From Mytilus galloprovincialis (taxonomy: Eukaryota): a DNA stretch of 64,000 nucleotides. Each line of letters begins with the position of its first letter. The first letter of the stretch is position 1. Positions 17,090 through 55,900 of this stretch are shown here, one piece after another. Both the position numbers and the translations under genes were made by a program. Location: positions 74,717,723-74,781,722 of the forward strand of contig NC_134841.1 of the NCBI RefSeq assembly GCF_965363235.1, read 5' to 3'. The notes beneath the pieces were generated by a model, which did no database searches, was not told the DNA's origin, and saw only the letters and a list, made by a program, of their open reading frames with translations.

Positions 17090-17246
17090 TATGGTTGTAT
17101 AGTGTCCTGCAGTAGTGATGGAGCAGTTAAAGTATGGTCACAGAAAGGTACAGAGATCACAACTCTGTATGGACATACACAGAGAGTCAATGGATGTGAT
17201 ATGATTGTCAAAACTAGCAAGGATGACACTGAAGAGGAAGAAGATG
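17090..17246 (+). CDS. WD40 gene exon: YGCIVSCSSDGAVKVWSQKGTEITTLYGHTQRVNGCDMIVKTSKDDTEEEED(G)
   Basis: Acceptor tgtcttacag ends 17089, donor GATG|gtaaat at 17247. SSDGAVKVW is a WD motif. Ends in phase 1. Confidence 0.8.
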
Positions 17247-17611
17247 GTAAATATATTAATGCTACTGATTGTCCTGGCCTTGTGGTCATATAACTTTGGA
17301 GCATGATTATTGTACCAAAAACTGAGAAATACTAGATTTAATGTTTTGAGCACATATTTTGTACTGAGTAAAGTTTTATGATCTTAAAGACGTTTTCTTT
17401 CAAAATTCAGGAATCCTTACATTCATTTATTATTAAAATTGTTGAGCAAAAGTGTGTGGTTAATGATTGTGACTTTAGGAAATACTAAATACAAATAATG
17501 TCACCAGTGTTCAAAATACAAGTTTAATTTTTGCAAAACTATAAATCATGTTGCACTTTTTGTAATAACAAAAACATCACACAAATTAATTAACAGTATT
17601 GTAATATAAAT

Positions 17612-18369
17612 GTTCCAGACCGTATGAGTATTTGGACCGTACGCGTACGGTCTGGACCGTATGCGTACTTTTTCAAAATACTCATACGGTCGGACCGTAC
17701 GCGTACGGTCTGATTAATATAATTAAGAAGTTGCTTAAGTTTTTAATTACAAATGCATGTAACAGATCAACATAACTTAACTCTCAAATTAATATGGAAA
17801 AGTTCAATTGTAATTGAAATAAAAACCTTATTTTTCAACTATTTAAAAAATTCACGCTAATTAAATCTGTTACTATCTTGTTTTTAGCATGTCGATCAGT
17901 AATACATTAATTGAATCATTAAATTGACGATATCGGAAGTAAACATAATGTGGGAGGACAATTGTTTTAGAATATTAGAAACTTTACAAAAAAAATACAA
18001 ATGCAAAGGAACATGAATGACCTGCAAGCATGTAATTGTAAAATATATTACATTACTTGTGGTAGCAAGTGTCACCTTGGGCGAGAATACCAAAATAGGA
18101 TTCAGATATACAATTAAACAAATATTTAATTTCAATTGTTCATTTGTTCATTTTATCCATCTAATTGCAATGATAACAATTTATAAAACTAAAAATAAAT
18201 GTTTGTTTAAATTTAACCCATATGATCCACAACATGTATGGTCAGCTCTTACTGGACCATATGCGTATACTCATACGGTCCGACCGTACGCGTATGGTCG
18301 GACCGTACGAGTATACGTATACGGTCCGGACCGTACGCGTACGGTCCAAATACTCATATGGTCTGGAAC
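17612..18369. mobile_element. MITE-like element (about 758 bp) with about 110-bp terminal inverted repeats built from palindromic GACCGTACGCGTACGGTC units
   Basis: The left end gttccagaccgtatgagtatttggaccgtacgcgtacggtctggaccgtatgcgtac matches the reverse complement of the right end at about 18250-18369. The 6-bp direct repeat ATAAAT flanks both ends (17606-17611 and 18370-18375). The AT-rich core has no transposase ORF. Confidence 0.7.
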
Positions 18370-18798
18370 ATAAATAAAAAACAAGATAAAAAGAATTGTA
18401 CTGTACTTTTATTTTTCATTTAGGTATAAATACTTTTTTTCTTCAATTCTTTAAAAACTGCATTTTTCAAATATAACAGTCTATTATTTATGGCACTGAA
18501 TTATGTAAGCACAAATATAGATGTTGTTATGACACAAGTGCAGGCAATATTTTTATAAAGATATAAAGATCATTTGAAATCAATGAATGCTTAATTTCAC
18601 TGAAACCACTTTATCCTGTCACCTGACAGTGTCCAGCTGGACTTATTCAGGGATTTCAACTGCCATCTTGTTACTTCATTTGTGTCACACATTATCAAAA
18701 GAAATCTCATTGAAAACCATCTAACAGAATTCCTTCAAACTTGCCCAAATTCACTACATGACATAAATTGTAATGAATACCAATTTTTTTTTTTAAAG

Positions 18799-18947
18799 AT
18801 GCAAACAAATCCTGGGCAGATATGGTAGAAACAGCAGAGGCTGCTAAGAAGGCTAAGAAATCAAAACCTCCAGGTGTAAAGATGGATGATGTTCTGGTAG
18901 CTACTTGTGGAGATGATGGTACAGTCAGGGTCTGGCAACCATTGCAG
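18799..18947 (+). CDS. WD40 gene exon: (D)ANKSWADMVETAEAAKKAKKSKPPGVKMDDVLVATCGDDGTVRVWQPLQ
   Basis: Acceptor tttttaaag ends 18798, donor CAG|gtaaga at 18948. TCGDDGTVRVW is a WD motif. Confidence 0.8.
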
Positions 18948-38773: not shown

Positions 38774-40739
38774 CATATATTGTCTAATTAACCTATAGCC
38801 GCACAAGTTCAAAGCGAAAGAGAACATCGTGTTTTCAAAACCCTCTTTTTTTACTTGGCATTCAAAGATGTTGGTCCGAGTGCCAAATTCATGTTAGTTT
38901 TTTTTTCGGATTCCGAACAAATTCTAAGGCTTCTAAAATACATGAAGTATTTGCTATAGTTGGCGTAGGTAAACACCAATGAATGAATTGAATCTGTCAT
39001 ACTTGATTTTGTTCATCAATATTTACAAAAAGGAAAAAGCTCAAGTGGATAAAGAAAGATGTACGATAAGGCTACATATTTGACTAATTAAATAAAGAAA
39101 ATAAAAACACAAGGAATAAGTGATTTATTCCACAACATAATCAAGATGTTGAAAGACATAGTCTATCACTCAGATATCTGTGATAATATATAATTTTGTC
39201 TTTTGTTTCTTCTAAAAAAAACTTCAAATCTCTTAATTGAAGGAAAAACTGCAACAAGTGTGCCCATTTTCAGATCTTCCAATTTAAAATCAGACAATGT
39301 TGCCCAAATAGGACTGCCAAAAAAAATTGTCTTATATATATACAAATATGTTAAAAGAACCAATATCATATCAATAAAAGACCATTTCTCATTCTAATTC
39401 GATATGTGTAAGAATTTATAACATGATGAAGGACATTTCTGTGAGACATTACCAGGCAAATCACCTTGTTAATAAATAAATCAATGAAAAATTAACATAA
39501 TTGAAAAAAAGGGCGAAATGACAATCTATGCAATTTCAGAGGGGGTAAGGAGGGGGGGGGCAAAAAATGACTCTTATTTATTACGTTTTTTACACAATGT
39601 TTGCTTTATACCACTGGGCGATATGAAACCCTCAGATAACTTATGATTATAATATAAAGATATGTGGTACGTGTACGAATGCAAATGAAACAACTATCCA
39701 TGTCATCCATCTGAGTCCAAATGAGGCGGATTTGAGCAATTATAGGTCTTCGTAAGGCCTTCTGTACATAATGAGCAAAACCCATATCTTTCCGTGGAAA
39801 CGCTTTTTTCTACCTTCTTCATGTCCCCTCGATTCAATTGTATGTCACAATTTGAAGAAAAAAAAATATTCACATCCAGCACATTGCAGCATTGCCAGCT
39901 GTCACGTAATACGGCAGCTGTATATATAATCCCTTGCGTTGCAACTTCAATTTGAATTTTTTTTTTTCTTCACATAAATCAATTTCCCCATATCAGTAAC
40001 GTATCAGTCATGGGCCGTGGCGTGGCTGGCGGGCACCAATCCCTGTAACTTGAAAAGCATTGGTTTTCCCAAGCTTAATAAAGGATATTGCATGGAAATA
40101 GGAATAAGTAAATTATTTCGTACATTTTCGAAAATATGCATCTTTTAAATTTCGAATTTAAAAAAAAAACGCATCTAAACAAATTGAGTTTAGAGGTCAG
40201 CTGAATAAAATTATTTCGTACATTTTGTACGCGGATGCGGGATGTTCTTGCTGTGTGAACCTTTTCATGCCCTTTGTTCGGGTTGTTGTCTCTTTGAAAC
40301 ATTCCCCATTTTCATTCTCTATTGTAGCTGGTTTCATTGAAAAAACTGTTACCGTTTAAAAAAAGATATCATAAAGGCGCAATCAAAAATAAATTAGTGG
40401 CAGATGCACGTATAGGGACAACAACATGGTTAAAAAGGAAATAAACAACCTACCACAAAACACTATATACAGGAAAGTAATGAAAATTAATTGTTAAAAG
40501 TCATTATTCATTTAAATTTTACAACATAGGTACATGAAAATTGGACTACCAATATGTTAGCTGACTATAATAAGGAGTCCAGGATTGCCTAAGAAATAAC
40601 GTTTTACGTGGTGACGTATAGTTTTAAATTATAGAAAAAATAAATATAATCATTCAGTCAAGCGAACATGTCTTAAATCAGAGTCATATCTAGACATGTT
40701 TATAAGTCTTTGCTTCAAGTTGTAAATTCGGTTACCATC

Positions 40740-46442: not shown

Positions 46443-47986
46443 TCCTACATGTCATTGTCTCGTTTGAAGTTTTATGTCCAGTCACCGTCCTATTACTTAA
46501 ATGGTTTCGCACTTTTAGATATGTTCTTGCATTTGGTGACCGAATGCTTGACCCATGCACATTTAGTCGCCGAGGACATTTGACAGACAAAAAAAAAAAA
46601 AAAACGTATGAAAACCTTGTACACATGCAGTGGTATAGTTGGTCATAAACTGTTTGAGAGTTGTGTGACCATAAACTGGCCAAATTAAACAGAACTTAGC
46701 CAATGTATTATAATTTGGAGGAAGACGATTAGTATACACCCCTGTCCAGTACCAGCTAAGACATCTAATGATCTATAATGCGCATCAAGTATAGTCTACC
46801 ACCTAATATGTCCCGTCTAAAAGTCTGGTGATAATTAAAGGCAGCAGTAATTTTATAAAACATATCCAATCTCATAAATTCCGTTGATTAAGATTGATAA
46901 AGTTGAACCATTCGTCATCTAACTGACCAACATTTTGTAAGCAATTGGTAATATTAAATTGGTTAATATAAGTATTATAATTCAGATTAGTGGACTTCGC
47001 CCCCTTCACATGCAGGTAACGCCTGCCTCATATACTGAAAAATAAATAGAACACTGACTGACATAAAATTGAGAGTGAAAATCGGGAAAGTGTCAAAGAG
47101 ACAACAACCAGACCAAAGAGCAGAAAACAGCACTAGACCAACAATGGGTTTACAACACAGCGAGAGAAATAAAATGTCAGAAGAAAACATATGGTAGTGA
47201 TATAAAGTTTAAGACTGATCTCATTATCTAAATCTCAGTCCTCCACCTTAATTTTCCATTTTCCGATTGCAATCCTCCGCATTTAGAAATTGGATGATAA
47301 AGAATGGACTCGCAAACATACAACGGAAACCAGAAAAGTACAAATATACAACAAAACAAAACAAAATATGAATAATTTCGCATATTTTCGTCGGTAAATT
47401 TTAAATTACAAGTTTTTAATTATTTTTTAATTGCTGTTAATTCGTATTTGTATTGTTTTAATTGTTTTTTTTTATGTTATGGTTTGAAAAATCTTAACAC
47501 TTGAACCCTTTTTTGGCTCCACCTATTTGATATCTGCCACTCCTTTTGTGCGAGCAGACGGCATCCTTGTATTTTGTTGAAGATGCTTTCATTATTTAAA
47601 CATATTGTTTTTTAAATTACTATAAGCCAAATAATCTCAGATTGAAACTTCCTTACCAATATTTTCCAGTGCTGTCAGAAAAAATCAGCAAAAACTCTAC
47701 GGACAAAAGTATTGTCAACTTTGAACTTTCACCTGCATACGGTAAAATCTCTGACGTCATTGAAATATGTGTGGAGTAACCGCTCCGTTTACGACTAGTA
47801 CATTCATAATCAAAATCATGTTATGAAAACAAGGACCAACACAGTGAGAGACAAATCATTGGAAGTGTTTATAAAACTGTGTAATTTTATTGTTTTAGAT
47901 GTGGATGAAACAACATTTTTAATTCAACTATTGTGATTTTTTATTAGAAGTACGTGACGTATGTCAGCTGTTGACTTTTGAAGGAT

Positions 47987-49085: not shown

Positions 49086-51374
49086 GCATATACATACATA
49101 ATGTGGCGGGGGTTAAACATGTTAGCGGGATCCCAACCCTCCCCTAACCTGGGACAGTGGTATAACAGTACAACATAAGAACGAACTATATAAATCAGTT
49201 GAAAAGGGCTTAACTCATCAGATGGACAAAAATACAAGTGGACATGGCCGGGTACTTGTACATCCCAACAACAAAAAGACACTAGTTACAGATCTGAGAT
49301 TTCTCACAGTTAACTGGCAGCTAGTTCAAAGCCACTAACAACTAATAAAAAAAATCATGCATCTAAGACTTATATATATGACTATTAAGCTCATGTGAAT
49401 CCGCCAAACTCAATACTTTATATACATGTACTAACTGACTTTGATTTCATAAAAAAAAATGACTTACATGTACAAGCTGAAAGTTGTTCTGTCTTACAAT
49501 TTCTTTAAATTTCAAAAAGAATTACTGGTCATACTATGTAGGGGTTGTGGTTGTTACAGTGTATTCCTAAAAAAACTGTTCGATTTAGTAATTTATGAAA
49601 TTCAACACAAACTATTCATATAGTCTATGTTCATTCCATTTATGGTCCCTCAAGGGAGTTATATTGACATGTACAAACAATACAGTACAAGATGACCAGT
49701 GAACAAACATGTACTCAGAAGGGCAATAAGTATAATACCAGACCATTTTAAATGTTCAGTACTCTGCTTCGGGGCTCTGTGCAGCAGTGCTACCCTAGGT
49801 GAAGCCAACGTTGGATTGTATAGTACATAGTAATAAAATTGAAAATGGAAATGGGGAATATGTCAAAGACTAAGAGAAAACAACCCGACCACAAAGAGGC
49901 TGAGCAGACAACAGGCGAAAGCTGTAATGTATGCATTTGGATATACATGTATTCACAAAGGATTTAAGTTATTATGCTAAATGTACATGAGATGTGGAGG
50001 ATACACATTGTATTATAATTGTAGCTGAAGACTAGACATTTTTTTAGGTCAAATTGAAGTATTTCAATATTTTTACATGTATATGGCATGCCAAAAGAAA
50101 CACATCATGTACAAAAAATTTACATGTAGAGAAAACTGTATTTTAATACAAAAATGGACAAAATATACATTTCAATATGAATGTTCACTGTTTCTGTTAC
50201 TTGAAAAACAGTTTTCATGATGCACAGTAACCCTCTTGTAGCCAAGATTGTCTACATCTACATGATCTAGATATTTATCATGTTTAATTTACAAACTACT
50301 AAAGACTGAGTGAAGATTATTTGATGGTTTGAAATGCTCTTTGAAATTTCACCATACTAGAATTCAAGATTTGTGCCACATTAGTTTCATCTGGTATTTT
50401 TTAAGCCATATGTACTGAGTATTGCATTTGTAAATGGTAACCTATGTCTTGTCCTTGTTTTTGAACCTATTGAACCAGAAACAGACTAGTACAAGCTATG
50501 CATTGTACCATACACATGTCAGTAGCATACCACAAGACATCATGATGAGATGTCACTACTTTGCACAATGCAGTATCTATTAGTACAATGGAAAAGTGTA
50601 CCCATCATTAAAAAAATGTGACCAACTCAATGTTACATGTATAAATAAGGAAATGCATGTGGTTTGATTGCCAATGTCTATCTGACAGCTGAGTCCAAAT
50701 GAAATGAATATAAAAAGTTATAGGTCAACATATAGCCTTGTAACAAAAATGAGTAAACCCATACTTTTATACATACATAGCTATAGTCGACTGTATAAAA
50801 AGGCCCCAACATGACAAAAAAGTCTGGTAGAAAAATAAGACATTTTCTTAATTGTAACAAGCTTTATAGCTGACTACATGTATGTGGTAAAGGGTATGCA
50901 CAGGGTATGCACTTGTATTCTATACAAAATACTCTTTGGTAACTTAAACTGGATGTCACTGCTTTAGATAGGATCCTGTTGTCATGTTCATAAACATGCA
51001 TGTTTTTTTTTGCACACAAGTTTTTGAAAGTGACCATTCTTGTTAAACTCAATTTATTTACTCATTATATTATTGTACATGTATACTTACATAGTATATA
51101 TATCCATTAAGTCTCCCTTTATTAAACTAGCTGTTACTTATTGTACATTATTGTAAAAACCTCTCATCTGGTTGAATGATTATTATGACTATTTTCACAC
51201 ACTTTCTAAAAATGGCACATTAAAAACTGAACTTATAAAGTTTAAAAACCTAAATATAAATTCTGTACATGTACATGTATATTAAAGCCAAGAAACCGTT
51301 ACCCACTACAAGTAGAAATGATTTTGAAGAAATTAAGAATATAATAAATATTTTTTTTAAATGATATTTTTCAG

Positions 51375-52289
51375 ATGCCGAAGGCCATAAAGCAGAAATG
51401 GGGGCCAATTGGATACATGGCATAGAAAGAAACCCAATTTTTAAAATTGCTGATGACAATAATTTGCTAGAATTGAGACATGGCAATAAAGGTCTTCGTA
51501 ATAAAACATCCTTTAAAATGGAAAATGGAGAGGAAGTAACTGAAAAAATAGTCAATCAAGTAAATTTGAACTATGGGCAACTAATTATGCAAGCAGAGGA
51601 TTTTTATCAAAATGGTATGCCCACAATGGAAGAAAACGATAGTGTTGGGGCATTTCTGGAACGTGAATATGAAGACACTTTGGAACGATATACAAATGGT
51701 GACCGTCATATTAGAGAATTGTTGTTTGATCAGCGAAAAAGGCTAGAGTGTTGTATATCTGGCTGTGATTCATTGTCAGAGGTTTCTTTGAGTGAGTTTG
51801 GAAGTTATGAAGAACTACCAGGTGTTCATTATACAATCCCACCCGGTTTTACTGCAGTTTTAGAAATCCTAAAAAGTAGTATCCCAAAGGAAAATATTTT
51901 ACTCAATCATCCAGTCAAATGTATACGATGGAATAGACAATTTCCAGATCCAGAAAAAAATGTTTATGAATGTTGTGTTGAATGTGAAAACGGTGAAAAA
52001 TTCTATGCAAATCACGTAATATGTACTGTTTCACTAGGTGTTTTAAAAGCTGCATGTGATAGGATGTTTAACCCACCATTGCCTAAAATGAAATTAGATG
52101 CAATAGATGCAGTTGGATTTGGCATTGTAGACAAAGTTATTGTTCAGTTTGATGAACCAGTGACAGAGCCTGAATTGTTCCGTGTAGAACTTGTGTGGGA
52201 CAATGATCTCATTGAAATGAATGATCTGCGACACACATGGTATCGTAAAATATACTCCTTTGAAGTGGTACATGACAATGTTTTAGTTG
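51375..52289 (+). CDS. Polyamine oxidase exon 2 (305 codons): (D)AEGHKAEMGANWIHGIERNPIFKIADDNNLLEL...VVHDNVLV(G)
   Basis: Acceptor atgatatttttcag ends 51374 and completes the exon-1 phase-1 codon. GANWIHG matches the conserved G(A/S)xWIHG motif of PAOX/SMOX/plant PAO. A single long open frame (ORF track 51398..52306). Donor TTG|gtgagt at 52290. Confidence 0.85.
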
Positions 52290-52362
52290 GTGAGTATGAT
52301 AGTTAAAGTGGCATAGGTGCTACATTTGTATCTAGACTGTCTTTTTTCACTTAGATCATATA

Positions 52363-52915: not shown

Positions 52916-55900
52916 TAAACAATTTAGTAATGAAAATTTTGAAGTTTACAGGGTTCTCACTATACATGTACATGTATCTTTGACACATTCCCCATTTACT
53001 TTTTCAATTTTATAGTACACAAACAAAAAATGTACATAGAAATATTTCATATCATGAGTTGTAAATACACTTTTGGAATTATTAGATATATCCATGAGGG
53101 TGTTATCCCGATTGGCTGTATCTAATATAATTGACACCAAGATATAAAGGTTGATACAAAGATTGATTTTGATACTTAAGTAGATGGATCTTGCAGCAAA
53201 TTCATGGTAAAGCAAGATAAATGCAGGATATCCAATAATATACAACACCTTGGTTTATAATTACCAGAACTTTTTTTACTACTATGAAGTCTTATGTACA
53301 TGAACATATATATATATATTTATATATAGACAATGTAAAATTAGGAGGCCAACATCAATTTGTTTTGGCCAGTTGTATTTACCTTTAATGTTCATGCACA
53401 TGCATACATGTATCTGAGGAAGTGAAGTGTGTTGAACGATTTTTCTTTGTGGAGAGATTTATGTGTAAATATTTCTTTTTCAGATAATATTTATTAAGTA
53501 CTATTATTATCATGATTATTATTTATTTGTTACCATGGTACATTTGTTACAGAACAAAATCAATAGTTCTACAGGTGCTACAAATGTATTTGTACATGTA
53601 CATTGTATATGTATATATATATAGTATGATATAGGCATACAAAAAAAATATTTGTGATTCTACCACCCTAACTCAAGAATTCTGGGCCCTCAAGCGACCT
53701 TTAGTTTACAATTTATACGTAGCAATCAAGAGTAAAGTTGGAGATTGGTGGACTATAACAACTTACAATATCATGATTTAGTATTAATTTTGATAACAAC
53801 CAACCAAACAGGCCAGTGATATTGTTGACTTTTTTCAAAACTACCTCTATCCTTTTTCATTGGGAAAAAATGCATCATTTTCTTCAAATTGGGAAATTTA
53901 AAATAAACCATGAATTTGACTGAAACTTCAATTTACAGACCAATTTTCTCAAGAGTCAAACCCTGCTTTAAAATAAGACCCCATTTTGTCATTTATGATA
54001 CATAAATAGACCCTCAAATGTTCACATATAGTCATTTTACGCAAGAAAATTGTTTAAATGAGTGTTTTTCAGTTTGTATTCATGCACAATTATTACTGAG
54101 ACTGCACTGTTTGGGAAAAAAGTTGTCTTTTTGGGAATAATTTTAAGCCGTTTTTTTTTCCAAATTGGGATTCTTCTCTAGGGGAAAAAGCCTTTATTCT
54201 CCACTAATTCAAGGCAAACAATATCACTAGTACTGCTGGCCCTAATTATTTGTCATTTTTTTAACACAATATTTTAATAAAGTAAAACTTTTGAAACCAG
54301 ATAGTGTAATTGTCTATGTACAGCACTAAATGATTTATGTGTTCTTTTGTTACATACATGTATGTATAACTTTGGCAAGTGTAAATTATTGTAGTTCTAG
54401 CATACTACAATGTAGTACTGTACATGGTCTTCACCCTTGTAATAATGACACATGATTGAATTCAGGGTTTTATGATTTATTACTGTCCAGGTTCAACTGG
54501 TACTTTGATATATCATTATCAGATATCATTCATTTGATTTTCATTCATTGTATACATCCGTCAATAATTACAAAGCCCATCTCGGCCAGGTTTCTGACAA
54601 TTTCAAAGCTGGCTTCCAAATTATATAAAAGAGAAAAAAAGAAGGAAAGGTTGATTGCAGAAAATATGTGAAGCAATGACTCAACAGATTATGTTGATCC
54701 TCTCAGACAGCATGCAGTGAAAACGATTAACTTTTAAGGTGAAGGGATGGTTAGATATGTAAATGTAATACATGTGGAAAGAAAACATATTTGTCTCTCA
54801 GGACAGTAACCTGTGATTTGTCCTTGTTTGACATCATGAAAGCTATGCAGTGTAGCATCAATAAAACTTGTATAAAATATACTGTGTATACTCTCACTCA
54901 GTAAATTTATCTACCTATAATACAATGTAATAGCTACTATCTACTAGGCTTATCCATATTTTCATTTTGTGAAATTGATATTTTTTGTTGAAGTATTGTG
55001 AATTGATCATGTTGGTTGTTTCAAAATCATAAATTTACATTTTTACTTTACAATTGTGTGTTTCAATTTTAAGGGCATCCCCAGTCTAGAATTCAAAAGG
55101 TAAAGAGTTCATTGGCCGGTCAGTTTTCAGTCAATGGGTTAATTCATGTCTTCTGTATCGATTATAATGAAGATTCAGTGTAGCATTTGCCTTCTTTCAA
55201 TTGCAGCGGTCAATAAACTTTCTGCACAATCCTGACCTTGGTTGATATGAACAGTGATGTTGATCATTTTGTGAAGAGAGAGTTGTTTTCTGTCTTGCCC
55301 AAATGCAGTTAATGATTTTTCTATCCCCAATTTACAACAAGTATTTTTCCACTATTATTTGTTAATTAACTTCATCATGAGACACTGAAGAGAGTTTTGG
55401 AAGCTAAGTTTGCTTGTAGCTATAAGCATGGCCACATGCATCTTATTACAATTTATGTGATAAATCTAATATATATACTGTACTGGTGGTATACATGGTA
55501 TATATGTTGTTTGTAAATTTGACTTCTTTTTCCAAATAATTCTTTTGTCATTTCTAATGTGTTTGCTTTGAATTGAAATTTTCACAATTAAATGGTTGAA
55601 TGTTTACAACTTTTGTTGTGTCAAAAGAACTATGTATGCATGTTTCATTTCACGGTCGGTCGTGATGTCACTACAGTCATACATGTACATGTACCTTAGA
55701 AACAAAATTGATGCATTTGACATCAGACATCGTTGCATCTAGGTCATGGCAAATTTGCAAGCAGATCTAGATATATACAACATTTTGGGATTGCTGTTGT
55801 GTATCTCTTGTCTGTTATGAAAATCTATACCTATGTGCAAGTTCTGCTTTGGCAAAAGAAGGTGTGAATTGATAAAAGTCATAGAACATTACAACTAGTA

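Follow-up and report, generated by a model that had tools for sequence, protein, structure and literature searches.

What is a block of CG-rich palindromes doing in an AT-rich intron of a bivalve gene? The block in question lies in the mussel Mytilus galloprovincialis, within a stretch of 64,000 nucleotides of contig NC_134841.1 (positions 74,717,723 to 74,781,722 of assembly GCF_965363235.1). The whole of this stretch is referred to here as the window, and positions are counted from its first letter. A preliminary description, made from the letters of the window, had proposed a miniature inverted-repeat transposable element (MITE) with unusually long, internally palindromic terminal inverted repeats (TIRs). 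That proposal is borne out: the sequence at 17611-18370 is a MITE, being 760 bp long (less than approximately 800 bp), without coding capacity, bounded by TIRs of ~100 nt and a target site duplication (TSD), and represented at 12 loci. The palindromic block is to be annotated as an inserted transposon, not as a regulatory or structural part of the host gene, which encodes WD40 repeats. It is very probable that the element is a transposed, non-autonomous TIR element. Its membership of the Ginger2/TDD superfamily is probable, and is proposed from structural signatures only.

Structure and composition of the element

In an alignment of copies, homology between the window element and 11 other members of the family ends exactly at 17611 and 18370 (Table 1). 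The element is a single copy within the window; the family consensus built from the copies is 778 nt long, and the 56-nt family terminus reads TGTTCCAGACCRTAYGMGTATTTGGACCGTACGCGTACGGTCYGGACCGTATRCGT. The two TIRs are inverted repeats of one another over 63 nt at 92% identity, or over ~100 nt if an 11-nt indel is allowed. No coding capacity was found in the element, the longest open reading frame (ORF) being of 118 aa, with database relatives that are only spurious ORFs of other copies. The contrast between CG-rich ends and AT-rich surroundings is marked, with 50-53% GC and a CpG observed/expected ratio of ~2.0 in the ends, 26% GC and a ratio of 0.56 in the interior, and ~31% GC and a ratio of 0.43 in the window overall.

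The ends had been described as arrays of a palindromic 18-mer interleaved with a second unit, and this part of the description requires revision. The 18-mer itself, GACCGTACGCGTACGGTC, is present as three perfect matches and one match with a single mismatch, all in the ends, with 0 expected from shuffles of the 64-kb window and no further copies elsewhere in it; it contains ACGCGT, the MluI site. The basic repeat unit is nevertheless a 14-nt half-unit, GACCGTAYGMGTAY, which occurs in both orientations, and the 18-mer consists of two half-units overlapping head to head. Sixteen half-units are found at two or fewer mismatches (0.44 expected), seven in 17618-17710 and nine in 18255-18363, so that all lie within the two ends. 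The supposed second unit, ccgtatgagtat, is indeed interleaved in the ends, but as a TG/A variant of the half-unit and not as a separate repeat. A full-text literature search returned no paper mentioning the 18-mer core.

Each end is self-complementary because the half-sites occur in both orientations. As anticipated from the palindromes, self-folding of the left end is calculated at -35.1 kcal/mol (z -8.2) and that of the right end at -40.2 kcal/mol (z -7.8), and 17611-18370 in its entirety gives a long hairpin of -146.5 kcal/mol (z -14.2). No evidence was found here that self-folding of the ends has a function of its own. The left and right ends are not equivalent, and their asymmetry is kept across copies: where left ends have CCGTA, in the first unit, right ends have CCATA; the ACTTTTTCAAAAT spacer is confined to left ends, and an additional unit pair to right ends.

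Table 1. Coordinates of the element, its parts and the flanking exons of the host gene within the window
Feature	Position	Strand	Remarks
Complete non-autonomous element	17611..18370	.	760 bp; termini 5'-TGTTCCAGACC...GGTCTGGAACA-3'
Left TSD copy TAAA	17607..17610	.	4-bp duplication
Right TSD copy TAAA	18371..18374	.	4-bp duplication
Left TIR	17611..17713	+	103 nt; terminus TGTTCCA; 7 half-units; two perfect 18-mers; ACTTTTTCAAAAT spacer
Right TIR	18250..18370	-	~120 nt; 9 half-units; one perfect and one 1-mismatch 18-mer
Non-coding AT-rich interior	17714..18249	.	26% GC
Perfect palindrome GACCGTACGCGTACGGTC	17635..17652	.	also 17693-17710 and 18329-18346; one mismatch at 18282-18299
Upstream exon of host WD40-repeat (TEP1-like) gene	17090..17246	+	splice border, translation, Pfam WD40 / TEP1 beta-propeller matches
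Downstream exon, same WD40-repeat host gene	18799..18947	+	splice border, translation, Pfam WD40 / TEP1 beta-propeller matches

Copies of the family at other loci

Further members of the family were recovered from metagenome assemblies by two routes. When JGI/ENA metagenome contigs were scanned with a composite motif, two AT-rich contigs (L004 and L005) emerged that are homologous to the element across both ends and interior and differ from it in their flanks. The 118-aa spurious ORF, which spans the right end, was then used to search a protein collection, and is usable as a search handle because such ORFs are often annotated by gene callers in metagenome data. It returned 10 matches, all from ENA assemblies, and the corresponding contigs were retrieved. 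In all, 11 further copies (L004-L012, L019 and L020) are available from 10 assemblies, making 12 loci with the window, and their flanks are unrelated. Two of them (L006 and L009) are complete, five (L007, L011, L012, L019 and L020) are truncated by contig ends, L010 has the right end of the element, and the copy in L008 is long and composite. Neither viral contigs nor prokaryote genomes yielded any copy in motif scans.

Three other metagenome matches (L001-L003) were rejected as not being the element. They are GC-rich (54-70%) arrays of GACCGTACGAGTAC, at 345-484 of L001 (irregular spacing), 12664-12731 of L002 and 1552-1619 of L003 (units 18 nt apart), possibly prokaryotic coding repeats with a chance resemblance to the half-unit. 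Two of the genuine copies adjoin other repeats. In L006, an extra ~140 nt (9717-9859) belongs to another short interspersed repeat, of which the window has four partial copies (47061-47165, 40273-40326, 49833-49891 and 52973-53013) at 79-89% identity; the repeat common to both suggests that the host of L006 is the species of the window or close to it. The L005 copy ends inside its own right TIR at 219, and is followed by 78-101-nt tandem repeats (219-540) and then, at 700-1700, by a lengthy stretch that is open on the other strand, so that the sequence after 219 is probably another, nested insertion.

The distribution of copies bears on whether the locus represents a transposed MITE or a locus-specific inverted duplication or foldback of the FB or Mutator-like element (MULE) type. 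A local duplication unique to this site was the outcome that the preliminary description had set against its own reading. The element is instead a multi-copy mobile family, and a local inverted duplication is rejected because the 12 loci have unrelated flanks and clean TSDs. Foldback elements such as Drosophila FB and Galileo do share with the element TIRs made of short repeated modules and a strong hairpin potential. Their TIRs extend over hundreds of bp to kb, with 7-9-bp TSDs (typically 9 bp in FB/MULE elements) and MULE or P-type transposases, in contrast to the ~100-nt TIRs and 4-bp TSD here. In L006, at 4698-6638 and 2.7 kb from the MITE copy, lies an ORF of 646 aa without interruptions, in which a Mutator transposase domain (PF20700) and PML_C are recognised; it may be an intact MULE of that bivalve-like genome. 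It was rejected as the source of the transposase of the element, as it lies outside the TSD-bounded copy (9314-10193) and has no half-units nearby. A duplication or foldback origin is therefore extremely improbable, and the element is taken further here as a transposed MITE.

Conservation of the ends

Across copies, the ends are 94-100% identical and the interior 76-84%, except for 93% over a 135-nt stretch common with L005. Relative to the window element, L009 is identical over the left end (103/103) and has 97.5% identity in the right end and 83.1% in the interior. Corresponding values for right end and interior are 99.2% and 80.6% in L004, and 96.7% and 82.2% in L012; L011 has 95% and 94% in its ends and 76% in its interior. 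The better conservation of the ~100-nt ends points to the region of the 14-nt motif as a probable recognition module, in which the repeats probably serve to bind a transposase. So little divergence in the ends also suggests fairly recent insertion of the copies sampled, from several sublineages whose interiors have diverged.

The CpG density of the ends had been put forward as a target for methylation. Thirty of the 36 consensus CpGs are indeed located in the ends, but the substitution patterns lend that proposal no support. Changes from CpG to TpG or CpA amount to 0.030 per CpG base, as against 0.043 for other transitions at other C/G positions and 0.027 at A/T positions, and this comparison detects no excess CpG decay among the copies.

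Boundary, duplication and target site

The preliminary description placed the element between direct repeats of ATAAAT. These hexamers are present, at 17606-17611 and 18370-18375, but the true duplication appears to be the inner TAAA of 4 bp. Homology among the aligned termini starts at GTTCC, but all 15 termini have T immediately before it, and this T is assigned to the element because it is invariant, unlike a target base; the boundary so defined is 5'-TGTTCC...GGAACA-3'. The left ATAAAT is accordingly made up of a target purine (A), the TSD and the first T of the element, and the right one of the last A of the element, the TSD and a target pyrimidine (T). In the three complete copies, a 4-bp TSD is perfect throughout (TAAA in the window, TATA in L009 and CATA in L006). 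A 6-bp TSD is perfect in two (ATAAAT in the window and ATATAT in L009) and fails in L006 (GCATAT vs ACATAC), and an 8-bp TSD fails in every copy. A 4-bp TSD with TG...CA termini, and not a 6-bp ATAAAT, is thus the most likely arrangement as judged from these flanks.

The insertions appear to share a target preference. Over 15 ends, with binomial P values calculated against window composition (each <= 0.003), position -6 is a purine in 14 (P = 5e-4), -5 is T in 11, -4 is A in 12, -3 is T in 12 and -2 is A in 14 (P = 2e-6). An exact RTATA is found at seven of the 15 ends, the background frequency being 0.007 per position. The original target at the window locus, ATAAAT (from A at 17606 to T at 18375), is a loose fit to RTATAY.

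The apparent 6-bp TSD could also indicate an element of the IS3EU or GingerRoot type, for which 6 bp is the usual length of duplication. Fungal IS3EU elements have TIRs of more than 30 bp that end in TAYGG..CCRTA, and these pentamers do occur in the half-unit (PMC12730594). Complete IS3EU families are always TA..TA, however, and GingerRoot is mostly TA..TA and occasionally TG..CA (PMC10045372), whereas the termini here are TG..CA with the 4-bp TSD or G..C under the 6-bp model, the latter failing in L006. This placement is very unlikely.

A nested hAT element and a longer subfamily

A hAT origin is a rival reading, and the long copy in L008 contains a decayed hAT gene. The family termini of L008 bound 3.6 kb with several same-strand ORF fragments, which when joined match DUF4371 and hAT dimerisation proteins (E = 4e-66 to 4e-30); Pfam searches of seven L008 ORF fragments gave nothing meaningful. 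The MITE is colinear with the outer parts of this unit, and the interior of the window element matches L008 9794-10170. The gene was nevertheless rejected as evidence of hAT parentage, as it belongs to an element of its own, nested at 7639-9788. This nested element has a perfect, short, hAT5-like 5-bp TSD (GAACA), and an inverted-repeat scan gave termini of CAGTGGCGTAG... / ...CTACGCCACTG, in longer form CAGTGGCGTAGCTAC... / ...CCTACGCCACTG. Its transposase gene is decayed by frameshifts and stops, and L010 runs across the same site without the insertion.

Intact relatives of the L008 hAT gene (L013-L018) have no half-units. One of these, L013, is an intact hAT element with a 666-aa transposase (P0126) and a 15-nt TIR, CAGGGGCGTAGCTAG, which the termini of the nested L008 element resemble. 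Directly inside its left TIR, at 577-594, is a perfect 18-nt palindrome, GGCGTACGCGCGTACGCC, with a CGTACGCG core in common with the 18-mer of the window. The palindrome occurs once only, being absent from the right end, and the likeness may be coincidental.

Apart from the L008 gene and the L013 palindrome, the case for a hAT MITE (for example of the hAT6 lineage) draws on the architecture of the ends and on the flanking hexamers. hAT transposases, as in Ac/Ds and Hermes, recognise the ends of their elements through short subterminal repeats in both orientations. Several short bidirectional repeats within ~100 nt of each end are likewise a feature of this family, as of Ac/Ds, Hermes and hAT5/hAT6 elements. 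The hAT TSD is of 8 bp, with 5, 6 and 7 bp in the hAT5, hAT6 and hAT7 lineages, so that families with 6-bp TSDs do exist (PMC12730594), and ATAAAT in the window and ATATAT in L009 are perfect duplications of that length. Against this, the 6-bp model fails in L006, where the 4-bp TSD is perfect, and the invariant T at -1 points to a base of the element. The termini begin TGT, as opposed to CAG or TAG in hAT elements and to CAG in both the nested L008 element and L013. Neither 8 bp nor 6 bp holds as TSD length in all three complete copies, no ends in common with a hAT-encoding element were found, and a hAT affiliation is unlikely.

Beside the nested hAT element, L008 contains a second nested block of 244 bp (7388-7631) between 9-bp direct repeats of ATGAACAAA, which is also absent from L010. 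The block overlaps a short ORF (7363-7590, 'WNSLSEKIV...FKNRLDKYW') without a Pfam match, which may resemble the C-terminal end of ORF2 from a non-LTR retrotransposon. With both insertions removed, a continuous frame of 190 codons is restored, which reads ...SKRCKCKGTCMNKTCKCRKSGVPCSSKCHSGRACENVIQVDN and ends ...CKCRKSGVPCSSKCHSGRACENVIQVDN* at ~330 bp from the right terminus. This remnant spans L008 6917-7387 and 9796-9882 (also L010 1-216) and has a Cys-rich, CXC-like tail, CKCKGTCMNKTCKCRKSGVPCSSKCHSGRAC, of which a decayed trace is present in the window copy at ~18026-18081. The family thus includes a longer non-autonomous subfamily of ~1.2 kb, seen in L008 and L010, in which a 3' gene remnant is preserved, and the remnant may be the 3' end of the gene of the parent element.

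Proposed assignment to Ginger2/TDD

Ginger2/TDD elements are mobilised by an integrase-like DDE transposase that has an H2C2 zinc finger, with no RT or RNase H. They are characterised by TIRs of ~50-180 bp (45-297 in Table 2 of the source), 4-bp TSDs (5 bp in TDD-4 and TDD-5), TGTNR termini and an RTATAY target (PMC2836005). In the present family, TSD length, target preference and TIR length (103 and ~120 nt) all agree with this description, as do the TATA core of the target and the TGT...ACA termini up to the fifth base, which is C. The superfamily has been listed from a mollusc, Littorina (Bao, Kapitonov & Jurka 2010, PMC2836005). A Ginger2 MITE of the silkworm Bombyx and of Rhodnius, with TATA TSDs and TIRs of TGTTACGGTA... 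/ TGTTACGGTAAAAGTA (PMC3845634), also shares with the element TGTT and an ACGGT core. In bivalve genomes, Ginger DDE elements have been reported, and MITEs are abundant but unclassified to superfamily (PMC10294476); the element resembles the latter in being small, non-autonomous and intronic. Tandem-repeat-containing MITEs of Donax, as cited in the same source, differ in having an internal tandem-repeat core, which this family lacks, its repeats being in the TIRs. The element departs from known Ginger2 elements in that its TIRs consist of 7-9 CpG-rich 14-nt half-sites in both orientations with perfect 18-nt palindromes, a modular architecture without match in those parts of the Ginger2 literature used for comparison.

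TGT...ACA termini together with a 4-bp TSD are also hallmarks of long terminal repeats (LTRs), and the termini of Ginger elements have been described as resembling those of Gypsy LTRs (PMC2836005). The possibility that the element is a solo LTR of a Gypsy-like retrotransposon is nonetheless highly improbable. Ends that are mutual inverted repeats over ~100 nt are not an LTR feature, LTRs having only very short inverted termini and occurring as direct-repeat pairs around gag-pol, and no second copy in direct orientation was found within 64 kb in the window, 20 kb in L008 or 10 kb in L006. At none of the 12 loci does an end adjoin retroelement internal sequence, and the longer subfamily has its 3' ORF remnant inside the unit.

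Another superfamily with 4-bp TSDs, such as Sola or an undescribed group, might mimic the Ginger2 signature. No transposase could be linked to the family, its fifth terminal base departs from TGTNR, and the TIR of an insect Sola1 MITE starts with GGACCGT, like the half-unit, and is accompanied by a 4-bp AT-rich TSD (PMC3845634). The Sola1 TSD is AWWT (PMC3845634), as opposed to TWWA or CATA here, and the element itself starts with TGT and not with GGACCGT. Kolobok and piggyBac need TTAA (PMC9587614), which none of the three TSDs (TAAA, TATA and CATA) matches, and Kolobok termini are RR..YY (PMC9587614). The duplications therefore fit neither Sola1 nor Kolobok/piggyBac. Among the superfamilies compared, Ginger2 alone combines TGT termini, a 4-bp TSD and an RTATAY target, and mimicry by another group is rather unlikely.

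Several observations weigh against the Ginger2 assignment or the inferences built on it. The terminal pattern is TGTTC in 15 of 15 ends, so that four of five positions fit TGTNR and the fifth is C, not a purine. The TSD length is drawn from three complete copies with both flanks, two of which also fit 6 bp, and the long L008 copy has no TSD under any model. None of the copies recovered from metagenome assemblies is an autonomous, transposase-bearing element with these ends. The restored ORF remnant (186 aa) gave only a sub-threshold Tesmin-type CXC match in Pfam (E = 0.16) and nothing in PDB, and no integrase (rve) or other transposase model in Pfam matches the remnant in L008/L010. The metagenome copies possibly come from hosts of different species, and their number is not a copy number for the source genome. 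Finally, conservation is the sole basis for a binding-site role of the 14-nt units. Even so, membership of Ginger2/TDD is the placement favoured for this MITE.

A possible mechanism of mobilisation

For a Ginger2 MITE with such ends, mobilisation might proceed as follows. An autonomous Ginger2 element located elsewhere would supply a retroviral-integrase-like DDE transposase. This enzyme would recognise the 14-nt half-sites and occupy the palindromic 18-mers as dimers, and the several sites per end would allow a multimeric synaptic complex to form on both ends. Processing at the terminal CA-3' would follow, and then joining of the ends to an RTATAY target with a stagger of 4 bp. Re-mobilisation would be limited to copies keeping the whole half-site array. 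The ends could thus be conserved, and their CpGs survive in a CpG-poor genome, because only full-array copies were mobilised again.

The complete proposition, that the family is recently or currently active in bivalves through an integrase-like (Ginger2) transposase that recognises a CpG-rich half-site array with the 18-mer as dimer site, is speculative and to be regarded as doubtful. The intronic hairpin might, in addition, feed small-RNA pathways.

Host gene and other features of the window

The element sits within an intron of a bivalve WD40-repeat gene, as had been suspected from the exons on either side (17090-17246 and 18799-18947). Both exons have AG/GT borders, the reading frame continues from one to the other, and their translation corresponds to WD40 repeats from a TEP1-like beta-propeller. 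Elsewhere in the window, 51398-52306 is a long spermine/polyamine oxidase exon of 302 codons, with 91% identity to a transcript-derived protein, 74% to a scallop (Mizuhopecten) and 71% to an ark clam (Tegillarca) protein; no Mytilus or Crassostrea orthologue is among the database matches.

Implications for the family

The palindromic, CpG-rich modular TIRs and their strong conservation are the only features of this element that go beyond the routine. Two practical warnings arise from its analysis: what looks like a 6-bp TSD may be a 4-bp duplication together with target context, and a transposase gene found between MITE ends can be a nested stranger. Should the proposed mechanism hold, multi-site, bidirectional recognition of ends would be a property not described for Ginger elements in the portions of the literature compared, and ends of 97-100% identity with interiors that are ~17-20% diverged would represent several sublineages serviced by one live transposase. 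A bivalve family is assigned to Ginger2, provisionally and solely by the signatures of its ends and target, and its 14-nt motif could aid in finding an active integrase-like DNA transposase in molluscs.

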